A stretch of DNA of 64,000 nt from Alphaproteobacteria bacterium (GCA_965243135.1 OZ251539.1:5600001-5664000), one strand, 5' to 3'. Positions 4,618-63,045 are shown, counted from the stretch's first letter. The notes: generated by a model not told the origin, from the letters alone. A program made the numbers and translations.

Positions 4618-4620
4618 GCG

Positions 4621-6995: not shown

Positions 6996-7698
6996 GACGC
7001 GCGGCCAGGTCGTCGTCACCGGCGGCAGCCGCGGGATCGGCGCCGCCATCGCGACCGCCCTCGACGAAGCGGGTTACGAGGCCGTATCGGTGTCCCGTTC
7101 GGGCGACGCTCCCGCGGGACGCGGCCTTCGCTGCGACCTGACGGACGAGGCGGCGCTCCGGCGCGCCTTCGCCGCGATCGGCGAAAGCGGCCCGGTCGCC
7201 GGACTCGTCAACAACGCCGGGGTTCACGCGACGCAAAAGAGCGCCGAACTGACGCTCGAAGCCTACGAGGACGTGATGGCGCTCAACGCCACCGCGGTCG
7301 CGCTCGCCTCGCGGGAGGCGTATCCGCATCTCAGGGCGACCCGCGGCGCGATCGTCAACATCGGATCGTTCTTCGACAAGATGGGCGTGCCGGACAATCT
7401 CGCCTATTGCGCGTCCAAGGCGGCGGTCGGCGCGATTACGCGCTGCCTCGCCGTCGAATGGGCGAAGGACGGCATCCGCGTCATCAACGTGGCGCCGGGC
7501 TACATCGAGACGGATCTCAACCGCGGATACCTGGCACGCGACGACGTGCGCCGCTGGCTTGGCGGGCGCATACCCACCGGCGGCCCGGGCTCCCCCCGGG
7601 ACGTGGCGGCGCTGGTCGTCAGCCTCGTGACCGGAGATATTCCGTTCCTCACGGGAGAGACGATCTACATCGACGGCGGCCAGGGAATGAACCATTGA
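6988..7698 (+). CDS. SDR family oxidoreductase
   Basis: TGGSRGIG, NNAG, YCASK. Confidence 0.93.
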   Translation: MPETRGQVVVTGGSRGIGAAIATALDEAGYEAVSVSRSGDAPAGRGLRCDLTDEAALRRAFAAIGESGPVAGLVNNAGVHATQKSAELTLEAYEDVMALNATAVALASREAYPHLRATRGAIVNIGSFFDKMGVPDNLAYCASKAAVGAITRCLAVEWAKDGIRVINVAPGYIETDLNRGYLARDDVRRWLGGRIPTGGPGSPRDVAALVVSLVTGDIPFLTGETIYIDGGQGMNH

Positions 7699-9781: not shown

Positions 9782-10411
9782 ATGGCTTATGAAATCAGGC
9801 GATCGGGCGAAAGCCGGTCGTTCCCCCCGGGGGATCCCTTCCTGGCCGGCGCGGGGAAGGACGGCGACATTCTGCTGCTGCTCGGGAAACCGGAGGGAAC
9901 TGCGGCCGCGGATCCGTCCCGCGTCGCGGTTCTGGTGGAGCTCGGGACCGAATGCCTCGGCGTCCATACCGGAGAGCGGGCGGGCGAGGAAGGATCGAAC
10001 GTGCTTGGGTTCGCGCGTTACCGCAACGGCGACGATCCGCCGTCGCCTTTGATCGAGCTGGTCACGCAGCCTCGCAGCGATGCCGGAGCGATCGCGGCCG
10101 CTCGGGATTTGTTCGAGGCGGCCGGGTTGACGGTCGCCGTCTGCGGCGACCAGCCGGGACGGATCGTCGATCGGCTGGTTCGCCCGAAATACAACGCGGC
10201 GTTGCGTTTTCTCGACGAAGGGCTGGCGACCGCGAGCGACCTGGACATGACCTGCCGCATGGGGCTCGGCTATCCGGACGGCCCGATCGAGCGCGTGGAG
10301 CGCGGCGGGCTCGCGCGCCACTGCGACGTTACGCGCGCCCTGTTCGAGGTCTTCGGCGCGCCGGGCTACGCGCCGGCGCGGCGCGCAATCGTCGCCAGGG
10401 AGCGCGAGTGA
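9782..10411 (+). CDS. 3-hydroxyacyl-CoA dehydrogenase C-terminal-domain protein
   Basis: DQPGRIVDRL, DLDMTCRMGLGYPDGP; no NAD-binding glycine motif. Confidence 0.8.
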   Translation: MAYEIRRSGESRSFPPGDPFLAGAGKDGDILLLLGKPEGTAAADPSRVAVLVELGTECLGVHTGERAGEEGSNVLGFARYRNGDDPPSPLIELVTQPRSDAGAIAAARDLFEAAGLTVAVCGDQPGRIVDRLVRPKYNAALRFLDEGLATASDLDMTCRMGLGYPDGPIERVERGGLARHCDVTRALFEVFGAPGYAPARRAIVARERE

Positions 10412-11523
10412 TGGCGGGGCCGCTTTCCGGCGTGCTGGTCCTGGATTTTTCGACCTTGCTGCCGGGGCCGATGGCGAGCTTGCTGCTCGCCGAGGCGGGT
10501 GCCGAAGTCGTCAAGATCGAACGGCCCGGCGGGGAGGACATGCGCCGGTACGAACCGCGCTGGGGGAGGGACAGCGTGAACTTCGCGATGCTCAACCGCG
10601 GCAAGAAGAGCATCGCGCTCGACCTCAAGGACGCCGACGCCCGGGCGAAGCTGAGGCCGCTGGTCGAACGCGCCGACGTCGTGCTCGAACAATTCCGGCC
10701 GGGCGTGATGGAACGGCTGGGTTTCGATTACGAGACGGCGCGGAAGATCAATCCCGGCATCGTCTACTGTTCGATCACCGGTTACGGGCAGGACGGGCGA
10801 AGGCGCGACAGGGCGGGGCACGATCTCAACTACATCGGCGACACCGGGCTGCTGTCGCTGAGCATGGGGAACGCGGACCGACCGGTGGTGCCGCCGGCGC
10901 TGATCGCGGACATCGCGGGCGGCGCCTGGCCGGCCGTAATGAACGTTCTGCTTGCCCTGCGCGACCGCGACCGCACCGGCTCGGGCACGCATATCGACGT
11001 CGCGATGGCCGACAACCTTTTTCCGTTCATGTATTGGGCGCTGGGGAACGGTCAGGCTGCGGGCGTCTGGCCGGAAAACGGCGGAGATCTCGTGACCGGC
11101 GGCTCGCCGCGCTACAGGCTGTACCCGACGGCCGACGGCCGTTTCGTAGCGGCGGCGCCGCTGGAGGACAGGTTCTGGACCGCCTTCGCCGAGGCTATCG
11201 GACTCGAGGCGGCGTATCGCGACGATGCCGTCGATCCGGCAGCGACGTCCGCCCGCGTCTCCGAAATCATCCGGGCGGAGCCCGCAGCTCGCTGGGAAGT
11301 CGCGTTCGCGGAGGCCGATTGCTGCGCGACCGTCGTGAAGACCGTCGAGGAGGCTTTGGCCGACCCGCATTTTCGCGCGCGCGGGCTTTTCGATGCCGGG
11401 CTGACCAACGAGGAGGGCGACGAGATCGCGGCGTTGCCCGTGCCCGTTGCGCCGCAGTTCAGGGTTGCGAGGAGCGCGGTTCTGTCGGCGCCTGCGCCGG
11501 GGGACGACAACGGCGAAATCTGA
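10411..11523 (+). CDS. CaiB/BaiF class III CoA transferase
   Basis: PLSGVLVLDF, NRGKKS, FRPGVMERLG, GHDLNY. Confidence 0.95.
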   Translation: MAGPLSGVLVLDFSTLLPGPMASLLLAEAGAEVVKIERPGGEDMRRYEPRWGRDSVNFAMLNRGKKSIALDLKDADARAKLRPLVERADVVLEQFRPGVMERLGFDYETARKINPGIVYCSITGYGQDGRRRDRAGHDLNYIGDTGLLSLSMGNADRPVVPPALIADIAGGAWPAVMNVLLALRDRDRTGSGTHIDVAMADNLFPFMYWALGNGQAAGVWPENGGDLVTGGSPRYRLYPTADGRFVAAAPLEDRFWTAFAEAIGLEAAYRDDAVDPAATSARVSEIIRAEPAARWEVAFAEADCCATVVKTVEEALADPHFRARGLFDAGLTNEEGDEIAALPVPVAPQFRVARSAVLSAPAPGDDNGEI

Positions 11524-11673: not shown

Positions 11674-14600
11674 TCAGAACCGCGCCGTCAGGTCGACGCC
11701 GCCGCCGAACTCGTAGCTGTCGCCGCCCGTGGCCCAGCTCGCCGCGCCGCGAAGCGCGTAGCGCCCGTCGCCCCATGCATGGACGCCGCCCAGCTTCAGG
11801 CGCACCCACATCGGCTCGACGGTCGACCGCAGCTCCGTCCCCGACACCGTCACCTTCCGGTCCTTCGAAAACTCGCGCTCCGCGTCCACCGAGCCGAACA
11901 TGCGGATTCCCGAGGCCGCGTCCGTCGCCGCCCCGATGCCCGCGCGGCCCTTCAGACTCCGACCGCCCGTCAGGGATACGCGCGCTCCGACCGAGTCCGA
12001 GAAGTCGTTCATGGAGACCGTCGAACGGGTCATCGAGATTCGCGGCGTGAGAACCACGCCGCCCGCCACGGTCCGCCGCCCGACCTCCATGCCGACGGCA
12101 TGACCGCGCCCCGACGCGCCGCCCTTGAGCGCGCCCCGCGACGCCATGTCGGCATCGTACCAGGTCCACTCCGCCTGGAGGTCCATATAGGCGGCTTCGT
12201 CGAGCCGGGCGGTCCAGGAGACCCCGACGCCGACGCCCGACAGATCGATCTTGCCGCCGTTCGACACCTTCGCCGACCCGCCGCGGCGGTGCGCCGAGAC
12301 GCCGAACAGGCCGTTCTCGGAGACCGGGCCCCGGAAACCCGCCCAGACGCCGTAGCGGTTGTGGTCGTAACCCAACCCCGTCGTTTCCGACCTCTCCGCG
12401 CGCTGCTTGCCGCGGAAGGACTCCACAAGCGCCCAGCCGCCCCGCGCCGAGCCCGCCGCCATCCGCTCCCGGAACTCCGGCAAGCCGTTCAACCTCAGCA
12501 GCGTCGACGGCAGCGCTTCGTACACGCGGGCGCGCGGCGCGTAGACCGCCTTCAACGAGACGCCGCCGTCGCCGTCCGCCTCCACGCCGACGTCGAAGGC
12601 GCCGTCCGGGACCGAGCGCGTCGAATCGGGATCCCCCAAGCGGGTGACGGTCCCGTCCGAGGCGCGGTACGCCACCTCGGGTATGCCGTCCTTATCCCGC
12701 ATCGCGCCCGGAATCCGGCGGATGGCCTCGAGGGGCCCCTCCCCGGGCTTTTGCTGGATCTCCACCACCAGATCGCCTCGCTCGCTCGTGATGGCTTCGT
12801 TCTCGACGCCCGTGATCCGACCGTCCGCCCCGACCGTCACCCTTCCGCCACCGTCGAGCCGCACGCGGCCAGCCGTGCCGCCCACCGTCACCGCGCTGTC
12901 CTTGCCGGCCACGTCGATGGTCCCCGTGACCGTACTGCCGGCCTCCGTCTCGACCCTCGCGGGACGATCCCCAAGATCGACGACGTCCCCCTCGATCTTG
13001 CCGCCGGCCGCTACCGCCACGCTCAGAGCGTCGGCCGCGTTCCGGACCGCGACGCCCTCGATTCCCCCGATCCGTCCCGTCGCGCCCACCGTCACCGCGC
13101 CGCCGTTGTCGAACCGCACTTGCCCGGCCGCGCCGTGCACCGTCACCGTGCTCGCGGCCAGATGGATAGCGCCCGTCACCGTCCCGCCGTTCGACACCGT
13201 GACCGTGTGCTCGCCCGCGCCACGACCGAAAACGTTGCCCTCGACCGTGCCCGCCACCGTCACCGACAGGTCGCCGGCAGCGCTGCGGATCGCTTCCCCC
13301 GAAATCCCCGCGATCCGTCCCGTCCTGGCCACCGTGACCGTCGCGCCGCCGGCGTAGAGGAGCCGCCCGACGCTGCCGCGCACCGTCAGCGGGCCGACGG
13401 GATCGTGGACCGTTCCCGTCACCTCGCTTCCGGCTTCCGACGCGAACCGCAACGCGCCGCCTCCCGTGTTGCGAATGTCGCCCTCCACCGCGCCGGCCAC
13501 CGTCACCGACAGGTCGCCGGCAGCATTGCGGATCGTTTCCCCCGAAACCCCAGCGATCCGTCCCGTCCTGGCTACCGTGACCGTCGCGCCGTCGGCGTAG
13601 AGGAGCCGCCCGACGCTGCCGCGCACCGTCAGAGGGCCGACGGGGTCGTGGACCGTTCCCGTCACCTCGCTTCCGGCTTCCGAAGCGAATCGCAACGCGC
13701 CGCCGCCCATGTTGCGGATGTCGCCCTCCACCGTGCCGCCCACCGTCACCGACAGGTCGCCCGTGCCGTCGGAAAGGATGCCGTCGCCCGAAGTCGCGCC
13801 GATCCGCCCGGTCGCGCCGACTTTCACCGTCCCGCCGCCGGCCAGATGCACGCCCGCCCCGGTCCCGCCCATGACCGAGCCGTTCACCGTCACCGTCTGA
13901 TCCCGAAGGCCGCCGTCCCCCGCTGCGAGACCCGCCCCGCTCACGTAGATGCCGTGGCGTTCGCCCGAGACGGTGGCGCCATCGGCCACGGTCACCGCGA
14001 TGGCGCCGTTGCGGTCATGGGTCAGCACATAGCGTGCGTAAACGCCGTCGCCTTTGGCGGTGCCGTCGCTCTTGGCAGTAATGGTGCCGCCGGTGACGTC
14101 CACCGAGATGTCGCCAGCGTTGTAGCTCATGGCGCGAAGCCGGACGCCGTCCTTCCAGTTGTCCGTATAGTCGGCGGGAAGCGCGGCGAGCGCCGCCTCC
14201 AGGTCGCCGCCCGTCAGGACGGCCGCCAGCACCGTCCGTTCGTCGTCCGAGAGCGTCCCGCCGAGGCCGCCGCGCCGGACGTAATCCGCTATCTCGGTGT
14301 GGGAAAGCGCCATGGCGCGGATGCCCGCGCGGGGGATGTCCAGAATCTCGACCGCCGCCTCCTCCGCCAGTCTGGCGTTGGCCCCCGGAGCGTTTCCCTG
14401 GGAGCCATGGTGATCCGTCCGCTCCGCGCCGCGCGCGGCCTGGAAGGCCCGCATGCGCGCCTTCCAGGCGTCGTCGTAATCATCGGGAAGCGCGCCCAGC
14501 GCCGTGTCCAGCGCGTCCGAATCGCCTCCCTCGATCGCGTCGAGGACGGCCTGCTCGCCCGCCTGAAGCGTCCCGTCGTCGCCCGCCACGGCGGCGCGGA

Positions 14601-15852
14601 TCCAGGCGTCCATCACGTTCTCGCCCACCGTGACGTCGCCGCTGGAGGTGACGTGAATCATGGGCGCGGTTCCGGCCGTCTCGTCCGCGGCCTCGTTTCC
14701 GTCTCCGAAGGTGGAGCCGCTCCGGGGCTCGGCCCAGGCGAGAATGCCCGCGTCCCGGGCCTCGATCCGGCCCCGCGCCGCGATGACGACGCGACCCGCC
14801 GCGTTCGCGGAGGGCATCAACCGGCCGTAGACGCCGTTGGCGAAGGGCGCCGCGACCCGCGTCGCCGCGCCGACCGTCGCATCGAGGATGCCGTTGCCGA
14901 CGTGAAGCGAATAGACGCCGACGCTGCCCTCGCCTTCCGCCACGATGACGGCTTCGCCCGATACGTCGACCGTGACGTCGCCCTCGCCCGAATGGACGCC
15001 GTTGACGGCTCGGGTGAATCGTCCCCTGGTCGTGACGGAGGCGCCCGACACGCTCGCGTCGGCGTTTCCGGTCCCGCCAATTTTCCCGCTATAGACGCCG
15101 TGGGCGAGGAAGCCGTTCGTCTCGATGGAGCCGCCCTGAACGTCGACGTCGACGTCTCCCGTCGGACCCTGTTGATAGCCGAAGATGCCGAGGGAGTTGG
15201 CTCCCTCCGTCCTCATGACGACGTCCTTCGTGTCGATGTCGATGTCGCCCGTGACCTGTAGCCAGCCGGTGACGCCCTGGCTGACGCCTCCTCCCGTCGT
15301 CGTGAGGGAGCCGCCCGACACGTCGATCTTGATGTTGCCCGTCCCGGCCTGGCGACGGACGTATACGGTGTTGCCGTTGTCGTTGGCCGTCGTGATGTCG
15401 ACGTTCTTCACCGTGACGGCGACGTCGCCGCTTCCGCCGTTGCTCCAGCTGCGGATGCCTTTCGCCCAGTTGCCCGAGGACGACAGGGAACCGCCCGTCA
15501 CCTCGATGGTGACGCTCCCCGTGCCGTAGGTGTCGGCGGTGACGGGGGACTCGTTGTGGCCCGTCAGCGAGATGTCGGGGTTGCGGAGGTTGATGTGGAC
15601 GTCTCTCGTCTCGCTGGCGGCGCGGTCGCATACGACGATCGTCGTGCGGCCGGTCACGACGTCGCCCGCGCACAGGTTCTGCGCCGCCGCCTCTCCCGCG
15701 CCGAGTGCGAGGGCGAATCCCAAGGCGAGCGCGGCCGGCATGCAAACGCTGCTTTGCCTTGCAGGACAGGCGCTGCCGCCAAGGCGTCCGCGAAGCGTTC
15801 TCGGGGTCGAGGGGGAGGCGGGCGCAACCCGCCGTCCGAAAAAGTCCATCAT
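11674..15852 (-). CDS. Autotransporter (type Va) with G/T/V-rich beta-helical passenger
   Basis: 1392 aa; hydrophobic signal ending AAAQ, repetitive passenger, ARVYEALP linker, barrel ending VDLTARF. Confidence 0.88.
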   Translation of the reverse strand: MMDFFGRRVAPASPSTPRTLRGRLGGSACPARQSSVCMPAALALGFALALGAGEAAAQNLCAGDVVTGRTTIVVCDRAASETRDVHINLRNPDISLTGHNESPVTADTYGTGSVTIEVTGGSLSSSGNWAKGIRSWSNGGSGDVAVTVKNVDITTANDNGNTVYVRRQAGTGNIKIDVSGGSLTTTGGGVSQGVTGWLQVTGDIDIDTKDVVMRTEGANSLGIFGYQQGPTGDVDVDVQGGSIETNGFLAHGVYSGKIGGTGNADASVSGASVTTRGRFTRAVNGVHSGEGDVTVDVSGEAVIVAEGEGSVGVYSLHVGNGILDATVGAATRVAAPFANGVYGRLMPSANAAGRVVIAARGRIEARDAGILAWAEPRSGSTFGDGNEAADETAGTAPMIHVTSSGDVTVGENVMDAWIRAAVAGDDGTLQAGEQAVLDAIEGGDSDALDTALGALPDDYDDAWKARMRAFQAARGAERTDHHGSQGNAPGANARLAEEAAVEILDIPRAGIRAMALSHTEIADYVRRGGLGGTLSDDERTVLAAVLTGGDLEAALAALPADYTDNWKDGVRLRAMSYNAGDISVDVTGGTITAKSDGTAKGDGVYARYVLTHDRNGAIAVTVADGATVSGERHGIYVSGAGLAAGDGGLRDQTVTVNGSVMGGTGAGVHLAGGGTVKVGATGRIGATSGDGILSDGTGDLSVTVGGTVEGDIRNMGGGALRFASEAGSEVTGTVHDPVGPLTVRGSVGRLLYADGATVTVARTGRIAGVSGETIRNAAGDLSVTVAGAVEGDIRNTGGGALRFASEAGSEVTGTVHDPVGPLTVRGSVGRLLYAGGATVTVARTGRIAGISGEAIRSAAGDLSVTVAGTVEGNVFGRGAGEHTVTVSNGGTVTGAIHLAASTVTVHGAAGQVRFDNGGAVTVGATGRIGGIEGVAVRNAADALSVAVAAGGKIEGDVVDLGDRPARVETEAGSTVTGTIDVAGKDSAVTVGGTAGRVRLDGGGRVTVGADGRITGVENEAITSERGDLVVEIQQKPGEGPLEAIRRIPGAMRDKDGIPEVAYRASDGTVTRLGDPDSTRSVPDGAFDVGVEADGDGGVSLKAVYAPRARVYEALPSTLLRLNGLPEFRERMAAGSARGGWALVESFRGKQRAERSETTGLGYDHNRYGVWAGFRGPVSENGLFGVSAHRRGGSAKVSNGGKIDLSGVGVGVSWTARLDEAAYMDLQAEWTWYDADMASRGALKGGASGRGHAVGMEVGRRTVAGGVVLTPRISMTRSTVSMNDFSDSVGARVSLTGGRSLKGRAGIGAATDAASGIRMFGSVDAEREFSKDRKVTVSGTELRSTVEPMWVRLKLGGVHAWGDGRYALRGAASWATGGDSYEFGGGVDLTARF
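13245..13760. repeat. 243-bp (81 aa) tandem duplication in the autotransporter passenger
   Basis: GATCCGTCCCGTCCTGGC at 13312 and 13555; the protein repeats GDLSVTV..GDIRN.GGGALRFASEAGSEVTGTVHDPVGPLTVRGSVGRLLYA. Confidence 0.9.
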
Positions 15853-16455
15853 GTCGCGTTCTCCAAGCCATCGGAGCGATTCGATTTCAGCGTGGTCCCC
15901 TCGTCCGTGATGGAAACACGATCACTAAGGGGAACTCCGTGACGGAGTCCGACGCCGCCAGCGTTTCGGTACGATAGCATTTTTTCGAACGTTTATCGCC
16001 TGCCGTGCGTCGGCGGCAATTCGCGTTAAGAGTTGCAAATTCCGAAAACTCGCCAAACTGGCTGAAATCGAACGTTTTCGGGTGCGGGTCGGCGGCAAAA
16101 CGCTACCCGGCAAATGCACTCCAAATCTTGAATTCGTCGCGTTTGGGCCAAGCTGTTGGAAATTTCCAGTCAAGTTCCAAGGCGACAGGCCTTCGCGGGC
16201 CGGAGACCGGCCCGCCGCCGCGGTTTCAGAAGCGCATCGCGAGGCTGATTCCGCTGTCGAATTCGCCGTTGCCGCTGCCGCGGGCGGCCGAGAAAAAAAC
16301 GGAGCGTCAGGAGACTCTGGTTTCCGCGAAACTCGGGTTGTCGTAGTTGGCGGATGCCATCGCTTGCGTTGCGACCCGGCGGCGCGTCATGGGGCAGCGG
16401 CGCCGCGTGGACTCGTTCCGGCAAGGATCTACAATGACGGCCGGGCAGGAGGCGA

Positions 16456-33382: not shown

Positions 33383-35249
33383 CGAAGCCGGACGCCGTTT
33401 TATCTCTGCGGCGTGACGCGACGACGTCCCTTGCGTCCGCTCGACCTTCATTGAACGGCAGGAGGCAGCCGCCTGCGGAAGTTTTCGCTCCCGCGAACTT
33501 TGCCTCGCCTGGACGAACGCGCTCGCCGCCGGAAATCCGGACGCCGCGGTCGAACTCTGAGCGCGCCGCGCAGGCGCGTCTGCCATCCGTCGGCTTTTCG
33601 GGTTATGATCGCCCGGCAGCGTAGCGAAAGCCGTTCGACCATGCGCTTCTTCAACACGGCCGGCCCGGTCAGGCCCGAAAAGCACTATTGCGTCCCGGCG
33701 CTGGAGCGTCTGGATTTGGACGAGGCGCTCAGGCTCGTTCGGGACGAAAAGTATTTTGTGCTTCATGCCCCGAGGCAGACGGGCAAGACGTCCATTCTGC
33801 TCGCCCTGCAGGATCTGCTGAGCCGGCAGGGCTACCATTGCCTGTACGCCACCGTCGAGGGGGCGGGCGCCTCGGAAAAAGGCGCGGAGAAAACGATGCG
33901 GACGGTGCTCGCCAGGCTGGCATACGCGGCGCGGGACGGGCTCGACGATCCGTTCTTGGACGAAGTCTGGCCCGGCGTTCTCGCCGGATCGGGTCCCGAC
34001 CAGGCGTTGATGGAGGCGTTGGCGCGCTGGTCGCGGGCGTCGCCGAAACCGCTCGTGCTGCTGATCGACGAGATCGACGCATTGCAGGGCGGATCGCTGC
34101 TCTCGGTGCTCCGGCAGTTGCGCGCGGGATACCCCGGGCGTCCGGAGGCGTTTCCGCAAAGCGTGGTGCTGTGCGGGATGCGGGACGTGCGCGACTACCG
34201 CATGGACTCGACCGGCAGTCCCTTCAACATCGTCGCGAAGTCGCTGCGTCTGGGCGACTTCAGCCGGGAGGAAACGCTGGCGCTGCTCGGCCAGCATACC
34301 ACGGAGACGGGGCAGGCGTTCACGGCGGAGGCGCAGGAGACGGTGTGGGAGCAGACCCTTGGCCAGCCGTGGCTGGTGAACGCGCTGGCGCAGGAGGCCT
34401 GCTTCGAGAGCGCGGCCGGGCGCGACCGCTCGCGCGCCGTGACGGGCGGCGACATCGCCGACGCGCGGGAGCGGCTCATCCTGAGCCGGGCGACTCACCT
34501 GGACCAGTTGGCGTACAGGCTGGAGGAGGAGCGCGTCCGGCAGGTGATCGAGCCGATCCTCGCCGGCGGAGACGAGAGCGCCGTCGCCGACCGGGACGTT
34601 GAATACGCGCGAGATCTGGGCCTGCTCGCGAAGGACGGACCGCTCCGCATCGCCAATCCGGTCTATGCCGAGGTGATTCCGCGCGAACTGACCTGGAAGG
34701 CGCAGGCGGCGCTCAGGCAGGATACGGCCTGGTACGTCGGCGCCGGCGGCGGCCTCGACACGGCGAAGCTGATGGCGGCGTTCCAGAGGTTCTTCCGCGA
34801 GAACTCGGAGCACTGGAAGAACCGCTTCGCGTACCCGGAGGCCTGGCCTCAGCTTCTGTTGCAGGCGTTTCTGCAACGGGTGCTCAACGGCGGCGGGCGG
34901 ATCGAGCGGGAGTTCGGGCTGGGCCGGGGGCGCGTCGACCTGCTGATCGTCTGGCCGAAGGGCGGCGGCGAGCAGAAGTTCGTGGTCGAGTGCAAGATGT
35001 TGCGCGGGAGCCTGGAGGCGACGGTCGCCGCGGGGTTGGAGCAGGTTAAGGGCTACATGGACCGCTGCGCGGCGGAGACGGGCCACCTGGTGATCTTCGA
35101 CCGCGACGAGAAGAAGCCCTGGGGCGAGAAGATTTTCCGCCGCGAGGAATCAAACGTCGAGATCTGGGGCATGTAGCCGGCAGCTTCCCGAAAACGGCGG
35201 ACAGCGAGAATTTGCATGCAGCAATCGGCTAGTCGGCGGCTCTCGCCCG
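33383..35249 (+). repeat. Copy 1 of a ~1.87-kb direct duplication (leader, AAA gene, trailer)
   Basis: Near-identical to 35852-37718 at a constant offset of 2469. Confidence 0.92.
33641..35176 (+). CDS. AAA ATPase with C-terminal PD-(D/E)XK nuclease-like domain, paralog 1
   Basis: APRQTGKTS, LLIDEID, REFGLGRGRVDLL...VECK, ends EIWGM. Confidence 0.9.
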   Translation: MRFFNTAGPVRPEKHYCVPALERLDLDEALRLVRDEKYFVLHAPRQTGKTSILLALQDLLSRQGYHCLYATVEGAGASEKGAEKTMRTVLARLAYAARDGLDDPFLDEVWPGVLAGSGPDQALMEALARWSRASPKPLVLLIDEIDALQGGSLLSVLRQLRAGYPGRPEAFPQSVVLCGMRDVRDYRMDSTGSPFNIVAKSLRLGDFSREETLALLGQHTTETGQAFTAEAQETVWEQTLGQPWLVNALAQEACFESAAGRDRSRAVTGGDIADARERLILSRATHLDQLAYRLEEERVRQVIEPILAGGDESAVADRDVEYARDLGLLAKDGPLRIANPVYAEVIPRELTWKAQAALRQDTAWYVGAGGGLDTAKLMAAFQRFFRENSEHWKNRFAYPEAWPQLLLQAFLQRVLNGGGRIEREFGLGRGRVDLLIVWPKGGGEQKFVVECKMLRGSLEATVAAGLEQVKGYMDRCAAETGHLVIFDRDEKKPWGEKIFRREESNVEIWGM

Positions 35250-35851: not shown

Positions 35852-37718
35852 CGAAGCCGGACGCCGTTTTATCTCTGCGGCGTGACGCGACGACGTTCGT
35901 TACGTCCGCTCGACCTTCATTGAACGGCAGGAGACGGCCGCCTGCGGAAGTTTTCGCTCCTGCGAACTTTGCCTCGCCTGGACGAACGCGCTCGACAGCG
36001 GAAATCCGGACGCCGCGGTCGGACTCTGAGCGCGCCGCGCAAGCGCGCCTGCCATCCGTCGGCTTTTCGGGTTATGATCGCCCGGCAGCGTAGCGAAAGC
36101 CGCCCGACCATGCGCTTCTTCAATACCGAGGGGCCGATCAGGCCCGAAGAGCACTATTGCGTCCCGGCGCTGGAACGTCTGGATATGGACGAGGCGCTCA
36201 GGCTCGTTCGGAACCGGAAATACTTCGTGCTTCACGCCCCGAGGCAGACGGGCAAGACGTCCGTTCTGCTCGCCCTGCAGGATCTGCTGAGCCGGCAGGG
36301 CTACCATTGCCTGTACGCCACCGTCGAGGGGGCGGGCTCCTCGGAAAACGGCGCGAAAGAAACGATGCGGACGGTGCTCGCCAGCCTGGCTTACGAGGCG
36401 CGGGACGAGCTCGACGATCCGTTTCTGGCCGAAGCCTGGCCCGGCGTTCTCGCGGAATCCGGCCCCGACGGGGCATTGATGGAGGCGCTGGCGCGCTGGT
36501 CCCGGGCGTCGCCGAAGCCGCTCGTGCTGCTGATCGACGAGATCGACGCCTTGCAGGGCGGATCGCTGCTCTCGGTGCTCCGGCAGTTGCGCGCGGGTTA
36601 CCGCAAGCGTCCGGGAGGCTTTCCGCAAAGCGTGGTGCTGTGCGGGATGCGGGACATGCGCGACTACCGCATGGACTCGACGGGCAGTCCCTTCAACATC
36701 GTCGCGAAGTCGCTGCGTCTGGGGGACTTCAGCCGGGAGGAAACGCTGGCGTTGCTCGGCCAGCATACCGCCGAGACGGGGCAGGCGTTCACGGCGGAGG
36801 CGCAGGAGACGGTGTGGGAGCAGACCTTGGGCCAGCCGTGGCTGGTGAACGCGCTGGCGCAGGAAGCCTGCTTCGAGAGCGCGGCCGGGCGCGACCGCTC
36901 GCGCGCCGTGACGGGCGGCGACATCGCCGACGCGCGGGAGCGGCTCATCCTGAGCCGGGCGACTCACCTGGACCAGTTGGCGTACAGGCTGGAGGAGGAG
37001 CGCGTCCGGCAGGTGATCGAGCCGATCCTCGCCGGCGGAGACGAGAGCGCCGTCGCCGACCGGGACATCGAATACGCGCGGGATCTGGGCCTGCTCGCGA
37101 AGGACGGACCGCTCCGCATCGCCAATCCGGTCTACGCCGAGGTGATTCCGCGCGAACTGACCTGGAAGGCGCAGGCGGCGCTCAGGCAGGATACGGTCTG
37201 GTACGTCGGTGCCGGCGGCGGCCTCGACACGGCGAAGCTGATGGCGGCGTTCCAGAGGTTCTTCCGCGAGAACTCGGAGCACTGGAAGAACCGCTTCGCG
37301 TACCCGGAGGCCTGGCCTCAGCTTCTGCTGCAGGCGTTTCTGCAACGGGTGCTCAACGGCGGCGGGCGGATCGAACGGGAGTTCGGGCTGGGCCGGCGGC
37401 GCGTCGACCTGCTGATCGTCTGGCCGAAGGGCGGCGGCGAGCAGAAGTTCGTGGTCGAGTGCAAGATGCTGCGCGGGAGCCTGGAGGCGACGGTCGCCGC
37501 GGGGCTGGAGCAGGTTGCGGGCTACATGGACCGCTGCGCGGCGGAGACGGGCCACCTGGTGATCTTCGACCGCGACGAGAAGAAGCCCTGGAGCGAGAAG
37601 ATCTTCCATCGCTCGGAATCGAACGTCGAAATCTGGGGCATGTAGCCGACGGCTGCCCGAAAACGGCGGACAGCGAGAATCTGCGCACAGCGACCGGCCG
37701 GGCGGTGGCTCTCGTCCG
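35852..37718 (+). repeat. Copy 2 of the ~1.87-kb direct duplication
   Basis: Both copies begin with CGAAGCCGGACGCCGTTTTATCTCTGCGGCGTGACGCGACGACG. Confidence 0.92.
36110..37645 (+). CDS. AAA ATPase with C-terminal PD-(D/E)XK nuclease-like domain, paralog 2
   Basis: Same length and motifs as 33641-35176. Confidence 0.9.
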   Translation: MRFFNTEGPIRPEEHYCVPALERLDMDEALRLVRNRKYFVLHAPRQTGKTSVLLALQDLLSRQGYHCLYATVEGAGSSENGAKETMRTVLASLAYEARDELDDPFLAEAWPGVLAESGPDGALMEALARWSRASPKPLVLLIDEIDALQGGSLLSVLRQLRAGYRKRPGGFPQSVVLCGMRDMRDYRMDSTGSPFNIVAKSLRLGDFSREETLALLGQHTAETGQAFTAEAQETVWEQTLGQPWLVNALAQEACFESAAGRDRSRAVTGGDIADARERLILSRATHLDQLAYRLEEERVRQVIEPILAGGDESAVADRDIEYARDLGLLAKDGPLRIANPVYAEVIPRELTWKAQAALRQDTVWYVGAGGGLDTAKLMAAFQRFFRENSEHWKNRFAYPEAWPQLLLQAFLQRVLNGGGRIEREFGLGRRRVDLLIVWPKGGGEQKFVVECKMLRGSLEATVAAGLEQVAGYMDRCAAETGHLVIFDRDEKKPWSEKIFHRSESNVEIWGM

Positions 37719-41898: not shown

Positions 41899-41936
41899 TT
41901 GAATATTTCATAAATACCCTATAAGTTCGTCTTATA
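41899..41936 (+). promoter_or_regulatory. Putative promoter with overlapping palindrome upstream of rpn
   Basis: TTGAAT-N17-TAAGTT; inverted repeat TATAAG-N5-CTTATA at 41920-41936. Confidence 0.45.
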
Positions 41937-41984
41937 AATCGACTGTCGGTACGCGCGCCCGCGGACCGGGGAGGAGACGGAACG

Positions 41985-43012
41985 ATGAGCGACGACGCCA
42001 AGTACAAGTCCCTGTTCAGCCATCCCCGGGTGTGCCGCGACCTGCTGCGCTGCCTCGTTTCGGAAGAACTGGCCGACCGGCTCGACTTCGACACCCTGCA
42101 GGCGATGCCGACGGAGTTCGTGGACGCCCGGCTGGGGCAGCAGCGCAGCGACATGGTCTGGCGCGTGAACTTCCGCGAGGGGGACGGCGAACTCTACGTC
42201 GTCGTCCTGACGGAGTTCCAGTCGACGGTCGACCAGGACATGCCGCTGCGCATGGTCAAGTACACGTCGCAAATATACACGGAGCTGCGGAAGGAGAAGC
42301 GGTTGCCCGACGAGAAGCTGCCGCCGGTGGTGCCGGTGGTGGTCTACAGCGGAGAGGCGCGGTGGTCGGCGCCGCGGGAGGGAGATGGTCGGGCCGGTCG
42401 ACGAGGAGCTTGAGCCGTACCAACTGCAACGCTACTTTCTGCTTGACCTTCGCGGGCGTCGAGGATGCGATGCCGGACAACGTGCTGTACGCGCAGGCGC
42501 TGGTCGAGCAAGGCCGGTGGGAGGATCTGCGGCCGGCGCTGTCGGCGTTGCAGGAGGCGACCGACCCGGAGGTGGACGTGCAGCTTCGCGGCCTGTTTGC
42601 GGCGTTGGTGCGTCAGGCGGCGGAAGGCAGCGGGCAGGTGAGCGGCGAGACGCTGAAGAAGCTGAAGTCGTTCGAGGAGACAGGGGAGTTGGGAGAGATG
42701 GGATCGTTGTTGGCCAAACGGATGGATCAGGCTGTCGACGAAAGTCGGGCCGAAGGCAGGGAGCTGGGGCTGACCGAAGGCAGGGAGCTGGGGCTCTCCG
42801 AAGGCAGGGAGCAAGGGCTGGAACGACAGCGGGCGATCTTGTTGCGTCTGGCGGCGCGGAAGTTCGGTGCGGGCACGGCGACGCGCCTCGAGGCGCTGCT
42901 GGCCGCGATCGACGATCCCGACCGTCTCGCCGTGCTCGGCGATCACGTGATCGATAGCGACGACGGCGAGGAGTTGCTGTCGCGCGCGACGGGCGTCGCC
43001 AGGTTGCACTGA
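41985..43012 (+). pseudogene. Rpn family recombination-promoting nuclease (YhgA-like), two frameshifts
   Basis: DAKYKSLFSHP, RSDMVWRV, EFQSTVD..MPLRM, LPPVVPVVVYSG; continues in a second frame (PYQLQRYFLLD) and a third (DNVL...EGRELG...RKFG). Confidence 0.85.
42750..42821 (+). repeat. 3 x 24-bp tandem repeat (EGRELGL)
   Basis: CCGAAGGCAGGGAGC at 42750, 42774 and 42798. Confidence 0.9.
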
Positions 43013-49337: not shown

Positions 49338-50690
49338 ATGGAGATGTCTCCTCCTTTTCTGCGGCGCGTTTTCGCCGAACAACTCGCCGAATCCGTGCAG
49401 GCGCCGTTGCCGACCTATACCGCTCGCCGCGTTTTCGGCCCAGCGGAATTTCCCGGCAAGGCGACGACGGTCGTCGGCGCGCGGCGAGCCGGAAAGACCA
49501 CCTTCCTGCATCAGCTGCGGGACGAGCGGATCAGGCGAGGCGTTTCCAGGGATCTGCTGCCTTTCGTTTCCTTCGAGGACGAGCGCCTCGCCGGTCTGGA
49601 GGCCGTTCACCTCGAATTGCTTGTCAACGAATACCAGCGCAGGTTCCCCGTCGCCCGGACCGTCGCCTGGTTTTTCGACGAGATCCGGGTCGTTCCTGGG
49701 TGGGAACGGTTCGTCAGACGGCTTCTCGATTCCGAACGAACCGAAGTGTTCGTCGCCGGATCGTCGGCCGCGTCGTTGTCCGGCGAAATCGCCACCGCGC
49801 TTCGTGGCCGAGCCTGGCGGATATTGATGCATCCGTTCAGTTTCGAGGAAGCTCTCCGTTTCCGGTCCGCGGAGCCCGCGACCGCCGGCTTTCTCGCCGG
49901 CTCCGAGTCCGCCCGGATGGAGCGCGCGTTGCTCGACTGGCTGGAAGCCGGAGGCTTCCCCGAAGCGCAAGATCTCGCCGCGGCGGCCAGGCGCCAACTC
50001 CTGCGCGGCTATGTCGATGCCGCGATGCTGCGCGACGTGATGGAGCGATACGGCGTTCGCAACATAGTCGGACTGCGTTGGCTGGTCCGGCATTTGCTAG
50101 GAAACGCAGGCGCCCCGTTCAGCGTCGAGAAGTTCCTCGCCGCGATAAGGTCGCAGGGGCTTGCGGTCGCGAAGGACACGCTTCATCGACTCCTTTCCCA
50201 TCTCGAAGATTGTTTCCTCGTGCGTATCGTGTGGATGGAGGCGAGTTCGGAGCGTCAGCGCATGGTCAATCCGCGCAAGGCGTACCCCGTGGATCCGGGG
50301 CTGATTCCGGTATTCGATCGCAGCGGACGAGCGACCGCCGGACATGCGCTGGAAACGGCTGTTCTTGTCGAACTGGAACGCCGCGGATTCGACGTTACGT
50401 ATCTGCGGACCGCGGAAGGCTACGAGGTCGATTTTCTCGCCCGCGGCCCGGACGGCGGCATGGAACTCCTGCAAGTGTGCGCGGACCTCTCGGATCCGGC
50501 GACCGCCGCTCGCGAATACCGGGCGCTCGCGGCCGGAGGCGAGATGTTTCCGGACGCGCGCAGGCTGTTGCTGACTCTCTTGCGGGACGGTCTGCCTGCC
50601 GAGGTTCCCGCGGGCATGGAGGTGCGAACGGCCTGCGAGTGGTTTTTGGAAACGGCGGGCGGGGAAGTCTCGGGCGCGCGGGCTTTCTGA
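49338..50690 (+). CDS. AAA_14 ATPase with DUF4143 domain
   Basis: GARRAGKT, FFDEI, GGFPE, NPRKAYPVDPG, YEVDF...QVC. Confidence 0.92.
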   Translation: MEMSPPFLRRVFAEQLAESVQAPLPTYTARRVFGPAEFPGKATTVVGARRAGKTTFLHQLRDERIRRGVSRDLLPFVSFEDERLAGLEAVHLELLVNEYQRRFPVARTVAWFFDEIRVVPGWERFVRRLLDSERTEVFVAGSSAASLSGEIATALRGRAWRILMHPFSFEEALRFRSAEPATAGFLAGSESARMERALLDWLEAGGFPEAQDLAAAARRQLLRGYVDAAMLRDVMERYGVRNIVGLRWLVRHLLGNAGAPFSVEKFLAAIRSQGLAVAKDTLHRLLSHLEDCFLVRIVWMEASSERQRMVNPRKAYPVDPGLIPVFDRSGRATAGHALETAVLVELERRGFDVTYLRTAEGYEVDFLARGPDGGMELLQVCADLSDPATAAREYRALAAGGEMFPDARRLLLTLLRDGLPAEVPAGMEVRTACEWFLETAGGEVSGARAF

Positions 50691-50885
50691 CCGGCGACGC
50701 CGCAGGCGGCTTGTCCCCGCGAGACGAAACCTGCGGAGTCGGTTTCGCCGGCGCGGAATCGCCCGGCGGGCGGTTCAGGCCGACCGACTTCGCGCCGACG
50801 AAGCGCCGTGGGCTCGGCTTCCGGAGCCAACGGCCGGCGCCATGCGGCGGAAGCGGGTGCCGCTTCCGCCGCATGGCGCGCGCGG

Positions 50886-51353
50886 TCAGCGCGACTCGTA
50901 GAAGTTGATCAGCTTGACCACGTCCTCGGCGTCGATCCGGCCCAGGGGACCGTCCGCATAGCTGGAAACCACGACCTTGTTGTCGGCGCCCAGAACGAAT
51001 TCGGACGGCTGAATGATCTGACGGCGGTCTTCCCACCACGAGCCGAGCGCATCCGCGACGTCGCGAGTGACGCCGTAGCCCACGGGAAAGTTCAACCCGT
51101 CCGCTATTTCCTTCGCCTTGTCGATGGGGTCGACGCTCGCGGCCACGATCGAGGCGCCGATTCCGGCAAGGGCTTCCTTGTGTTTCGCGAAGCCGGCCAA
51201 CTGCCGGCGGCAGTAAGGTCACCAATGGCCCCTGTAGAACAGGACAATCTTGTATTTGCTGTCGAGACCGTCCGGAAGATCGAGCGTTCCCCCGGCGACG
51301 AGATTGAGGGTTACGCCCGGAAAGGCGGCCCCGATGCCCAGCTTGTCGGACAT
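50886..51353 (-). CDS. Peroxiredoxin-like (AhpC/TSA) selenoprotein with UxxC motif
   Basis: Two in-frame ORFs joined by TGA 51219-51221: LFYRGHW-U-PYCRRQL; 155 aa; GGAG RBS. Confidence 0.85.
51192..51208 (-). promoter_or_regulatory. Candidate bacterial SECIS hairpin
   Basis: mRNA GCCGGC-AGUUG-GCCGGC; the apical loop starts 16 nt after UGA, with GU at loop positions 2-3. Confidence 0.65.
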
Positions 51354-51474
51354 GCTTGCTCCCTTGCGAAACTTGCCGTTACGGAGAATATATAGCGTCT
51401 CGGCGGCGAAATCGCAAACCGTTGACTCGCGGTTTCGTCGGGGTCGGGAACGATCGCAGACAGGAGGGAACGCG

Positions 51475-53088
51475 GTGCGGATCAGGGTCATTTTGGCGGC
51501 GCTCGGACTGGCCGCCGCCTTCATGCCGGCGGATGCCAGGGAACTTCGTTTCGGTTATCAGGGCGACGCCGACTCGATGGATCCCTACACGCTGAACGAG
51601 ACGTTCACGCTGGGTTTTCTCGGCAACGTATACGAAGGACTGGTGCGCCGGGCGCCCGATCTCTCGATCGAGCCGGCGCTCGCCGAAAGGTGGGAGATCG
51701 TCGAGCCGAACAGATGGCGGTTCCATCTGCGCCGGGGCGTAAGGTTCCATGGCGGCGAAGCGTTCACGGCCGACGACGTGTTGTTTTCCGCCGCGCGCGT
51801 GCGGGCGCAAGGCTCGGACCTGCGGACCCGGCTTGCCGGCGTCGTCGACGTCGTCGCGGTGGACGATTACACGGTGGATTTCGTCACCGAGAAACCCAAT
51901 CCGATCCTGCACGTCGAATGGGATTCCTGGTACGTCATGTCCAGGGCGTGGTCGGAAAAGCATGGCGCCGAAACGCCCGAGGCGGTTACGGGCGATCAGG
52001 AAAAGCACACGACGCGCCACGCGAACGGCACGGGTCCGTTCCGGCTTGTCGAGCGCGAAGCCGGGGTCAGAACGGTCGCCGAACCCAACCCCGCTTGGTG
52101 GGACGCCCCGACCCACAATCTCTCGCGGGTGACGTTCACGCCGATCGCCTCGGACGCCACCCGGGTGGCGGCGCTGCTGTCCGGACAGGTCGACATGGCT
52201 TATCCGATCCCCGTGCAGGACACGAAGCGCGTCGACGACGGCGCCGGCACCCGGGTGTTGGCGGGGCCCGAGCTTCGCACCATCTTTCTCGGCATGGACC
52301 AGTTCCGCGGCGAACTGCTCTATTCCGACGTGAAAGGCAGGAATCCGTTCAAGGACCGGCGGGTGCGGGAGGCCTTCTATCGCGCCATCGACGTGGACGC
52401 GATCCGCAAAAAGGTCATGCGCGGGCTTTCGAGGCCGTCGGCCATGATGATCGGCCCCGGGATCAACGGCTTCGACGACGGCTTCCGGCGCCTCGCCTAC
52501 GATCCCGAAAAGGCCCGCGGGTTGCTGGCGGACGCCGGCTACGGCGAGGGTTTCGAAGTCGGCCTGGATTGCCCGAACGATCGATACGTCAACGACGAGG
52601 CGATCTGCCAAGCCATCGTGTCGATGCTCGCCAGAGTCGGCGTGACGGTCAAGCTCAACGCTCAGCCCAAGGCGAAGTATTTCGCGAAGATTCTGGCGCC
52701 GCGGCTGGACACCAGCTTCTATCTGCTGGGTTGGACGCCCGGCAGCTTCGATTCGTGGAATCCGCTGTTCAATCTCCTCGGGTGCCCACGCGCGTCCGAC
52801 GGCGGGCCGATCTGGCCCCAGGGCGCGCGAGACGGAGTCGCGAACGGCAAGTTCAACCTGGGCGGCTACTGCAACCCCGGAGTCGACAGGCTGACCTCCC
52901 GAATCCTGTCCGAGACCGACAGGTCGGAGCGGGAGGCGCTCGTCCGAAAGGCGTGGTCGACGACGATCGAAGAGCTCGCCTATATCCCGCTGCACCAGCA
53001 AGCGCTCGCGTGGGGCGTCCGCAGCAACGTCAAGCTGGCCCAACGGGCGGACAACCAGTTCGCATGGCGTCACGTGGTCATGGAATAA
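51475..53088 (+). CDS. Peptide/nickel ABC substrate-binding protein (family 5)
   Basis: Signal peptide, VYEGL, PALAE.W, LR.GV.FH.G, NGTGPF. Confidence 0.93.
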   Translation: MRIRVILAALGLAAAFMPADARELRFGYQGDADSMDPYTLNETFTLGFLGNVYEGLVRRAPDLSIEPALAERWEIVEPNRWRFHLRRGVRFHGGEAFTADDVLFSAARVRAQGSDLRTRLAGVVDVVAVDDYTVDFVTEKPNPILHVEWDSWYVMSRAWSEKHGAETPEAVTGDQEKHTTRHANGTGPFRLVEREAGVRTVAEPNPAWWDAPTHNLSRVTFTPIASDATRVAALLSGQVDMAYPIPVQDTKRVDDGAGTRVLAGPELRTIFLGMDQFRGELLYSDVKGRNPFKDRRVREAFYRAIDVDAIRKKVMRGLSRPSAMMIGPGINGFDDGFRRLAYDPEKARGLLADAGYGEGFEVGLDCPNDRYVNDEAICQAIVSMLARVGVTVKLNAQPKAKYFAKILAPRLDTSFYLLGWTPGSFDSWNPLFNLLGCPRASDGGPIWPQGARDGVANGKFNLGGYCNPGVDRLTSRILSETDRSEREALVRKAWSTTIEELAYIPLHQQALAWGVRSNVKLAQRADNQFAWRHVVME

Positions 53089-56995: not shown

Positions 56996-57081
56996 CTGAC
57001 GCGTGGACGGCGGAACCGGTCCCGTTCCGGCACCCGTAGAGAGCCTTGCGGATGCGTTAATATCGGCGCTCCGGAGGTGAC

Positions 57082-58626
57082 ATGCGCTTCTTCAACACGG
57101 CAGGACCCGTCGCGCCGGCGGATCATTACTGCATTCCGCCGCTCGCGCGTCTGGATCTGGACGACATTCTGCTTTCGATCCGACAAAAGAAGTACTTCGC
57201 GCTGCACGTTCCCCGGCAGACGGGCAAGACGTCCGTCCTGCTGGCGTTGCAGAGTCTGCTGAACGCGAGGGGCGATTATCGGTGCGTTTACGTCAACGTC
57301 GAAGCCGGACAGATGGATCGGGAAGATACCGCGCGGGCAATGCGGACGATTCTCGCGGAGCTGTCCTCGCGGGCCCGGAGCGCGCTTCGAGACGAGTTCG
57401 TGGAAGAGATCTGGCCCGGAGTTCTCGAGAGGAACGGTTCCAACAACGCGTTCAGGGAAATTCTGACGCGCTGGGCCGAAGCGGATCCGAAGCCCCTGGT
57501 TCTGCTTATCGACGAGATCGATGCGCTGGTCGGCGACGCGCTGCTGTCGGTGCTGCGCCAGTTGCGGTCCGGCTACGACCTGCGACCCGAAGGCTTTCCG
57601 CAGAGCGTCGTTCTCTGCGGCTTGCGCGACGTGCGGGACTACCGGATCCGGTCGACGGTCGACGAAATCGTCGTCGCCGGCGGCAGCGCGTTCAACGTCA
57701 AGGCCGCGTCGCTGCGGTTGGGGGACTTCTCGCGGGACGAGACGCTCGCCTTGCTGGGGCAGCACGCCGCCGAGACCGGGCAGGCGTTCGCGGAGGAGGC
57801 GTCCGATCTGATCTGGGAGCAGACCCGGGGCCAACCCTGGCTGGTGAACGCGCTGGCCTACGAGACCTGCCGCGCCGTCCGGGACCGGGCCATCGCGGCG
57901 GACGACGTCGCGGCGGCGCGGGAAGCGCTGATCCTGCGCCGCGAGACCCACATCCTGGCGGACAGGTTGCGGGAAGAGCGCGTGCGGCGGGTGGTCGAAC
58001 CGCTCCTGAGCGGCGACGAGCGTACCCGCGGCAGCGAGCGCGACGTGGAATACGCGCGGGATCTGGGCTTGCTCGCGAGGGACGCGCCGTTGCGCATCGC
58101 CAACCCGATCTACGCCGAGGTCGTCCCGCGGGAACTGACCTGGATCGTGCAGGAGGAGTTCGATCAGGACATGGCGCTGTACGTCGACGCCGGGGGCCGT
58201 CTCGACGTGGAGAAGCTGATGGCGGCGTTCCAGACGTTCTTTCGCGAGAATTCGGAGCACTGGAGGCAACGCTTCGATTATCAGGAAGCGTGGCCGCAAC
58301 TCCTGTTGCAGGCGTTTCTGCAGCGGATCGTGAACGGCGGCGGGCGCATCGAGCGGGAGTTCGGGCTGGGCCGGCGGCGGGTCGACCTGTTGATTCTCTG
58401 GACGCAGGGCGGCCGCCTGCAAAGGTTCGCAGTCGAGTGCAAGGTGCTGCGCAAGGGGCTTGAATCGACGATATCCGAGGGTCTGGAACAGATTGCGGAT
58501 TACATGGACGGCTGCGCGGCGGAAGCGGGCCACCTGGTGATCTTCGACCGCGACGAGAAGAAGAGCTGGAACGAGAAGATCTTTCGCCGCAGTCCGAAGC
58601 CGAACGTCGAGGTCTGGGGCATGTGA
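57082..58626 (+). CDS. AAA ATPase with C-terminal PD-(D/E)XK nuclease-like domain, paralog 3
   Basis: MRFFNTAGPV, PRQTGKTS, LLIDEID, RVDLL...VECK, EVWGM; GGAGG RBS. Confidence 0.9.
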   Translation: MRFFNTAGPVAPADHYCIPPLARLDLDDILLSIRQKKYFALHVPRQTGKTSVLLALQSLLNARGDYRCVYVNVEAGQMDREDTARAMRTILAELSSRARSALRDEFVEEIWPGVLERNGSNNAFREILTRWAEADPKPLVLLIDEIDALVGDALLSVLRQLRSGYDLRPEGFPQSVVLCGLRDVRDYRIRSTVDEIVVAGGSAFNVKAASLRLGDFSRDETLALLGQHAAETGQAFAEEASDLIWEQTRGQPWLVNALAYETCRAVRDRAIAADDVAAAREALILRRETHILADRLREERVRRVVEPLLSGDERTRGSERDVEYARDLGLLARDAPLRIANPIYAEVVPRELTWIVQEEFDQDMALYVDAGGRLDVEKLMAAFQTFFRENSEHWRQRFDYQEAWPQLLLQAFLQRIVNGGGRIEREFGLGRRRVDLLILWTQGGRLQRFAVECKVLRKGLESTISEGLEQIADYMDGCAAEAGHLVIFDRDEKKSWNEKIFRRSPKPNVEVWGM

Positions 58627-62931: not shown

Positions 62932-63045
62932 GTTGACGGAGGAAGCGGAGTCCGCCGGCCGGAGAGCTTCCTCCCGGAGGCCGAAAGAACCGGTGCCGAG
63001 CGGCGTCCGCAGGCGCAACGGCGATCAAGCCGAGAGGAGATCGAT

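Follow-up and report, generated by a model that had tools for sequence, protein, structure and literature searches.

The gene dealt with here, which is located on the minus strand of a 64,000-nucleotide (nt) stretch of an Alphaproteobacteria bacterium genome (GCA_965243135.1 OZ251539.1:5600001-5664000; this whole stretch is referred to as "the window", and all positions are counted from its first letter), carries an in-frame TGA at the first redox position of a peroxiredoxin-like (Prx-like) protein, and belongs to a family that has been known as a selenoprotein family, i.e., one with selenocysteine (Sec, U) in its active site, since about 2005. As far as the accessible parts of the literature cited here go, a "Prx-like protein" with 22 sequences stands among the already known families in the Sargasso Sea study (PMC1088965), and the GOS study (Zhang and Gladyshev 2008, PMC2398784) describes Prx-like 1 (pfam00578, UxxC), counting 225 selenoproteins and 2,740 homologues with Cys, the FYRGHWUPYC subfamily having thus been published in 2008. 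A motif look-up in supplementary file 3 of the latter, combined with a reading of the matching passages, returned FYRGHWU 23 times, GHWUPYC 27 times and GHWUPFC 3 times; six of the eight passages lie in the "Prx-like 1" block (the header being contained in three of them) and hold strings such as FYRGHWUPYCRRQLV... and ...FYRGHWUPFCRRQLVGFEEQKAALEKLGVSVVAASIDP...

A 2006 survey (PMC1794560) places Prx-like thiol:disulfide oxidoreductase selenoproteins mainly in Deltaproteobacteria (Geobacter, Syntrophus, Desulfotalea) and describes sequenced Alpha- and Betaproteobacteria as having a single selenoprotein family, with FdhA as their only selenoprotein, and a 2016 survey (PMC5029168) records the Prx-like family in 28 organisms. 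PMC8124441 treats selB-selC in Alphaproteobacteria and fdoGHI-selABC clusters, and its accessible text holds no mention of peroxiredoxin, Prx or redoxin; nor is a linkage of Prx-like genes to selA-selB-selC described in the accessible text of PMC1794560 or PMC13188914, which is not proof that such linkage is unpublished.

The window gene is an ordinary further member of the Prx-like 1/Prx-like thiol:disulfide oxidoreductase family (pfam00578, UxxC) and very probably a selenoprotein, the UGA at codon 45 encoding Sec (U45) in a Sec-competent host. Sec recoding had been put forward in an original prediction made from the window sequence alone, and it is now supported by a TGA conserved among relatives, by selection on both halves of the gene and by a conserved hairpin; whatever doubt remains concerns whether the genome that the window comes from still has the Sec machinery.

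The in-frame TGA, its conservation and the encoded protein

In the list of open reading frames (ORFs), the minus strand has 51219..51524 (101 amino acids (aa), ending in ...KIVLFYRGHW) and 50886..51200 (104 aa, TTG start), which share a frame, and translation of 50886-51353 on the minus strand with TGA read as U yields one unbroken product in which codon 45 is U, flanked as in FYRGHW-U-PYC-RRQ. The original description of a gene split in the ORF track, with its halves in frame across the TGA at 51219-51221, is therefore correct. The features of the locus are:

50889..51353, minus strand: coding sequence of the putative Prx-like selenoprotein; 155 codons long, it starts with ATG at 51353-51351 and has the predicted Sec as codon 45
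51219..51221, minus strand: in-frame UGA, predicted Sec (U45), opening the UPYC redox motif
51210..51212, minus strand: encodes Cys48, the presumed resolving residue of UxxC, invariant in the family alignment and aligned with the peroxidatic Cys of true peroxiredoxins (ResA 3c71 and Prx 6p0w alignments)
51192..51208, minus strand: predicted core hairpin of a bacterial selenocysteine insertion sequence (SECIS), inside codons 49-54
51359..51365, minus strand: Shine-Dalgarno-like AAGGGAG, 5 nt ahead of the ATG
50886..50888, minus strand: true stop codon, TGA too
50830..50886, unstranded: inverted repeat, 27 nt, 89% complementary, 3-nt spacer, beginning at the last base of the stop codon

The comparative material comes from a protein search, which gave 1284 matches at E <= 0.001 among 1871 candidates (the best 120 were classified), and from a scan of species-representative genomes, which gave 361 relatives (the best 80 were analysed with up to 10-kb flanks and, together with the window gene, make up the "81 sequences" referred to below). 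These 80 related loci encode proteins 65-81% identical to the window protein and belong, by record title, mostly to Alphaproteobacteria (several Rhodospirillaceae, Hyphomicrobiaceae, Defluviicoccus, Devosia, Filomicrobium), with some Burkholderiales/Betaproteobacteria and a few given only as Pseudomonadota/Proteobacteria.

Every one of the 80 loci, all from other species, has TGA at the Sec codon, and Cys stands at this column in 5 of the 120 best protein matches (P0002, P0004, P0005, P0029 and P0048), which is the Cys/UGA exchange between homologues that a stop occupying the column of the first redox Cys, as originally claimed, would lead one to look for. Upstream, at a distance of 44 codons from the TGA, 79 of the 81 sequences have ATG, a Shine-Dalgarno-like motif precedes the start in 77, and invariant residues upstream of the TGA vary synonymously (six codons for Arg -4 and four each for Gly -37, Pro -33 and Gly -24). 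The NG86 ratio of nonsynonymous to synonymous substitution rates (dN/dS), computed pairwise between the window gene and the relatives, has a median value of 0.12 over the 43 codons upstream of the TGA (54 of the 80 pairs computable, the others having saturated dS) and of 0.17 over the 105 codons downstream (71 of the 80 pairs computable), and by these substitution patterns both halves are under purifying selection and both are protein-coding. Family members end in TAG (42), TAA (23) or TGA (16: 15 relatives plus the window gene), and the existence of TGA-terminated members implies that UGA is still a stop in these genomes, being read through only in the Sec context.

That standard annotation misses the gene, as the original prediction had also held, is borne out by the database itself, where 92 of the 120 best entries are fragments of <=110 aa starting at the Leu codon just past the TGA, which is the product expected of a gene caller stopping at UGA. 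A further 21 are full length with W at the Sec column, most simply a gene caller's reading of TGA under code 4, and R and Q occur there in one entry each. The error is thus a systematic one among the closest database entries (92 fragments and 21 spurious Trp-like readings), and the window gene should be called as one 155-residue selenoprotein, not as a 104-residue "peroxiredoxin" fragment; its presence marks the host as a likely selenocysteine user.

As regards the protein, residues 7-128, a span that includes the UGA, match Pfam AhpC-TSA (PF00578; E=9.2e-20, 71.3 bits vs. a cut-off of 26) and Redoxin matches as well (E=7.1e-11), while all NCBIfam models stay below their cut-offs (24-24.5 bits for the best peroxiredoxin equivalogs vs. 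140-374 required). In the AlphaFold2 model (42-sequence alignment; pLDDT 95.3, pTM 0.91), helix 46-57 starts right past U45, and the top Foldseek matches in the PDB are all peroxiredoxins/BCPs (TMq 0.78-0.86, identity 15-24%; best 3hjp_A, E=7.7e-12, TMq 0.86). The nearest solved protein by sequence is ResA (3c71, E=8.2e-5), whose WCPHC aligns on WUPYC, and in the alignment to Prx 6p0w, R41, U45 and C48 are the counterparts of the Prx Pro, Thr and peroxidatic Cys, respectively. This is a peroxiredoxin-type fold with a thioredoxin-like UxxC site, not the Prx PxxxTxxC site, and the original statement that "AhpC/TSA-like proteins carry FYRGxWCPxC" has to be narrowed to the Prx-like subfamily, canonical peroxiredoxins having PxxxTxxC instead.

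The SECIS-like hairpin and its synonymous footprint

The GCCGGC/GCCGGC stem with an AGUUG loop 16 nt past the UGA, which the original prediction had pointed out, is there letter for letter, with its 5' arm GCCGGC at 51208-51203, the loop AGUUG at 51202-51198 and the 3' arm GCCGGC at 51197-51192 (minus strand); the stem is a perfect one of 6 bp, the UGA and the loop are 16 nt apart, and the loop has G as its second base. The published model of bacterial SECIS elements (bSECIS; PMC13188914, Fig. 2 legend, as far as the accessible text goes) allows for a loop of 3-9 nt, an upper stem of 4-16 bp, a distance of 16-37 nt from the UGA, a minimum free energy (MFE) of <= -7.5 kcal/mol, and a G as the first or second loop base, after which G or U is usual. 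The window hairpin falls within every one of these limits (loop of 5 nt, stem of 6 bp, G at loop position 2 followed by U, 16 nt, -12.9 kcal/mol). Taken alone (21 nt), it is the MFE structure, with z = -2.85 and 1 of 200 shuffles folding as well.

The alignment around the UGA is gapless over 51 columns in the 81 sequences, and its RNAalifold consensus is exactly this hairpin, 96.9% of the cells being paired; none of 500 shuffles pairs or covaries as well, and sliding the register of the hairpin brings the paired cells down to <=55% in all cases. Three of the stem pairs are invariant, two vary between G-C and G-U or C-G and U-G, and the fifth varies on both sides (GU 33, AU 11, UA 6, GC 5, UG 3 and unpaired 13 among 71 distinct rows). 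It is this fifth pair that joins the third base of the Arg codon +5 (counted from the UGA) to the second base of codon +8, thereby coupling the amino acid at +8 (Val, Ala, Gly or Asp) to a silent base, and all six sequences with Asp (GAC) at +8 have CGU at +5.

The codons of the hairpin are held nearly constant even where the amino acid alone would leave them free to vary: codon +4 is CGC in 80 of the 81 sequences, +5 is only ever CGG, CGA or CGU, +6 is CAG in all 81, +7 is TTG (66) or TTA (15) and never CTN, +8 is GTC in 65 of the 65 Val-bearing sequences, and +9 is GGC in 74, the third-position entropy for Arg, Val, Gly and Leu codons in the rest of the gene being 1.2-1.9 bits. This synonymous freeze covers nucleotides 10-27 past the UGA, i.e., the six codons of the hairpin, and nowhere else; it is the strongest RNA-level signal in the data and, read from the alignment, points to an RNA constraint lying exactly on the hairpin, which makes the comparative set an unusually clean case of RNA structure imprinted on synonymous sites.

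Two further structures were considered and set aside. A competing hairpin, ACUGCC/GGCAGU with a 3-nt loop, is paired in 88.7% of the cells over the 81 sequences, a value reached by 409 of 500 shuffles, and was rejected as a conserved element; a lower stem pairing CUGC with GCAG (codons +10/+11), which could be made out in some loci, is not conserved.

Selenocysteine machinery, gene neighbourhood and alternative explanations

The flanks of many related loci hold genes of the Sec machinery. A tRNA-Sec was found in 38 of the 80 (28 of 60 plus 10 of 20), selA in 32, selB in 37, and a fusion of Pyr_redox_2 and AIRS domains (Ndh-SelD) in 23, both parts being covered in 21 of these; 48 of the 80 loci have at least one of the four, and so do 32 of the 50 whose flanks reach the full 20 kb. 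The tRNA-Sec lies <=250 bp from the Prx-like gene in 10 of the 80 loci and <=2.5 kb from it in 21. In one example of the fusion (L013:14740-17025, 760 aa), located near the Prx-like gene and the tRNA-Sec, a pyridine-nucleotide-disulphide oxidoreductase domain is joined to selenophosphate-synthetase-type AIRS/AIRS_C, and such Ndh-SelD fusions are mentioned in the accessible text of the GOS paper (PMC2398784). The two closest relatives, L001 and L002, are each 81% identical to the window protein, and in L002 the gene order is selA (4227-5654), selB (to 7576), tRNA-Sec (7603-7698), an enoyl-CoA hydratase gene, the Prx-like gene (10001-10465) and a deiodinase-like gene. The latter, which has an in-frame TGA of its own in the context FGSYTUPPF and is likely a second selenoprotein of the neighbourhood, occurs in six of the 80 loci (just downstream in L001, L002, L003 and L039; also in L027 and L072); in L002 it lies at 10315-11283 with the TGA at 10861, and Pfam T4_deiodinase matches the part past the TGA. 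Its hairpin has the loop CGUGC, closed by C-G, 20 nt past the UGA, and shares the N-G-U-N-N form of the Prx-like loop, a likeness to be expected if one SelB serves both genes.

Under the Sec reading, the gene product would be a cytoplasmic 155-residue selenoprotein with the active site U45-P-Y-C48 at the start of helix 1. A ribosome reaching UGA45 would meet a hairpin, 11-27 nt downstream, that recruits SelB-GTP-Sec-tRNA(Sec), its loop AGUUG supplying the G-U recognised by bacterial SelB; Sec would be inserted in place of termination, and translation would continue to the real stop. The selenolate of U45 would then act as the attacking nucleophile, to be resolved by C48 into an intramolecular selenenylsulfide that a cellular thiol reductant would reduce, and the protein would probably act as a thiol/selenol-disulfide oxidoreductase, or possibly as a GPx-style peroxidase. 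For this organism, Sec insertion itself, SelB binding, the catalytic cycle and the substrate are what we infer from the data given above.

Several observations weigh against the Sec reading. Within the 64-kb window there is no selA, selB, selD or tRNA-Sec: ARAGORN reports 0 tRNAs, the Pfam scan of 32 large ORFs is without SelA, SelB or SelD, and tblastn with the relatives' SelA, SelB and Ndh-SelD gives no match in the window. Rfam, too, has 0 families at gathering score over the window, a permissive scan of 51120-51260 returning two chance-level matches (E 6.7 and 9). The fold of the 65-nt context is unexceptional (z = -0.62, 51 of 200 shuffles as good), and in the window sequence an overlapping competing hairpin is favoured over the SECIS one (pair probability 0.73 vs. 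0.098; MFE -21.8 kcal/mol for the free fold vs. -20.0 kcal/mol with the SECIS hairpin enforced). Only one of the six stem pairs varies on both sides and three never vary, the fifth is U-U or U-C in 19 of the 81 sequences, and the shuffle control ignores relatedness. A 2026 review (PMC13188914), in its accessible text, grades the family as "predicted with high confidence", not as experimentally verified. As to structure, the window sequence alone is suggestive, and it is the comparative data that decide.

The missing machinery bears above all on the idea that the gene is a relic, i.e., that the host has lost its Sec machinery and that the gene now ends at UGA45 and is dead or dying. The empty 64-kb window stands against 32 of 50 full-flank relatives that have such genes within 10 kb, a divergent ABC transporter operon is found where L002 has selA-selB-selC, and the several ATPase and transposase-like genes of the window suggest local rearrangement, all of which would suit a relic. 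Against a relic, the frame, the start, the Shine-Dalgarno-like motif, all invariant residues and a perfect 6-bp hairpin with G-C at the variable pair are preserved; 18 of the 50 full-flank relatives are likewise without linked sel genes, yet keep the TGA and the hairpin, and two database fragments that start directly after the TGA (P0013, 98% identity, and P0014, 94%) indicate that close relatives keep the same architecture. A relic is, in our estimation, very unlikely.

Even less credence can be given to UGA45 being read as something other than Sec, be it Cys carried by a Sec-like tRNA charged with cysteine, Trp through near-cognate read-through, or a residue of a reassigned code: W does stand at the column in 21 of the 120 best database proteins, but TGA also serves as the terminator of the window gene and of 15 relatives among the 80, which means that the code has not been reassigned, a W at the nucleophilic CxxC position would kill the site (the W entries being, most simply, the code 4 readings already mentioned), and SelA, the enzyme that converts Ser to Sec, is encoded beside the gene in 32 of the 80 loci and SelD in 23, which argues for true Sec. 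That the TGA is a nonsense mutation or a sequencing error, or that the gene is truly split and makes two polypeptides, is next to inconceivable: the 104-aa downstream piece is indeed what gene callers report, starting at its TTG, but that TTG lies within the hairpin loop with no Shine-Dalgarno motif ahead of it, the downstream piece on its own would be without strands 1-3 and the active site of a confidently predicted one-domain fold, and the TGA kept in 80 of 80 species, the synonymous-site pattern and the dN/dS of both halves refute such a split or error as far as sequence can.

On the downstream side, the window shares with the related loci genes for an FAA hydrolase, ApbA, a 750-aa ORF and a 360-aa ORF of cluster 7, and it has no copy of the deiodinase-like gene; on the other side of the selenoprotein gene lies the divergent peptide ABC transporter operon at the place where L002 carries selA-selB-selC. 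An AAA_14 + DUF4143 ATPase gene (49338-50690, plus strand) converges on the selenoprotein gene and stands between it and the syntenic neighbours; it may be an insertion. The inverted repeat at 50830..50886 lies between the two convergent genes and has no T-run; it could be a terminator hairpin of the T-less kind, presumably belonging to the selenoprotein gene, and a consensus promoter and terminator scan around the gene returned nothing.

A wider reading of the linkage would make Prx-like 1, and not formate dehydrogenase, the "anchor" selenoprotein that travels with selA-selB-selC in a wide range of Alpha- and Betaproteobacterial lineages and that even works in selenium handling, which strikes us as rather doubtful. 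Ndh-SelD (often) and the deiodinase-like selenoprotein (sometimes) would be its co-travellers; that all this moves as an island is speculation, as is the thought that Prx-like 1 might be a redox partner feeding reduced selenium to the Ndh-SelD fusion. Were the anchor reading true, the unlinked copy in the window would represent such an island breaking up.

Elsewhere in the window there are three paralogous plus-strand AAA_22 ATPase genes (33455-35173, 35924-37642 and 57061-58623), the first two forming a tandem pair with 93% identity over 573 residues, a span that takes in the stretch ahead of the likely start, and the third sharing 65% identity with the first, and a 162-codon fragment of a YhgA-like putative transposase (Transposase_31) at 41925-42410 (plus strand); the fragment and the repeated ATPase genes hint at mobile or rearranged DNA. 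A 1415-residue ORF (11677-15921, minus strand) has a C-terminal autotransporter beta-domain and a passenger without a Pfam match at E <= 1e-5. A scan of the window for other selenoprotein candidates (in-frame TGA with coding-like GC content at third codon positions on both sides) yielded, besides the gene discussed, only 4615 (plus strand) and 63027 (minus strand). The former is an ordinary gene boundary, with an ECH_1 gene on one side and an AMP-binding gene on the other; at the latter (63025-63027, context ...HIDLLSA-TGA-SPLRLRT...), neither side has a Pfam match, and it is probably an ordinary gene end beside a spurious ORF.

Comparison with known systems

The hairpin resembles the SECIS of the E. 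coli fdhF type in lying just 3' of the UGA within the coding sequence and in having a small apical loop with G-U on its 5' side. It differs from that type and from the bSECIS consensus by its minimum allowed spacing (16 nt), its short 6-bp stem and the absence of a conserved lower stem.

With canonical peroxiredoxins (AhpC, BCP, Prx6), the window protein has the overall fold and the AhpC-TSA match in common, whereas their PxxxT/SxxC motif is not found in it, and Sec replaces the Prx Thr, not the peroxidatic Cys. The Sec-containing peroxiredoxins, as described in the accessible text of PMC2398784 and PMC1088965, have Sec at the peroxidatic position (TxxU), unlike U45. Among the ResA/TlpA-type CxxC oxidoreductases is the closest solved structure by sequence, in which WCPHC corresponds to WUPYC residue by residue, the similarity being weak. 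ResA takes part in cytochrome c maturation on the outer side of the cytoplasmic membrane, and direct reading of the window protein's translation reveals no hydrophobic N-terminal segment.

The deltaproteobacterial Prx-like selenoproteins, compared by description only (accessible text of PMC1794560 and PMC13188914), are alike in PF00578 and in a UxxC or UxxU site with Sec first, and differ in host clade, the genomes here being Alpha- and Betaproteobacterial. Closest of all is Prx-like 1 of the marine metagenomes (PMC2398784 and PMC1088965, within the same bounds), which has the same Pfam domain, the same UxxC, FYRGHWUPYC/FC-RRQL, and the blocks VAASVD and IQPSEF, and from which no difference at the protein level was found; those studies used short reads. 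Biologically, the window gene adds nothing new on recoding; next to the clean synonymous footprint, the tight linkage of the family to sel genes is an only mildly new point, one that, being seen in many Alpha- and Betaproteobacterial genomes, could nevertheless guide work on what the Prx-like family does.

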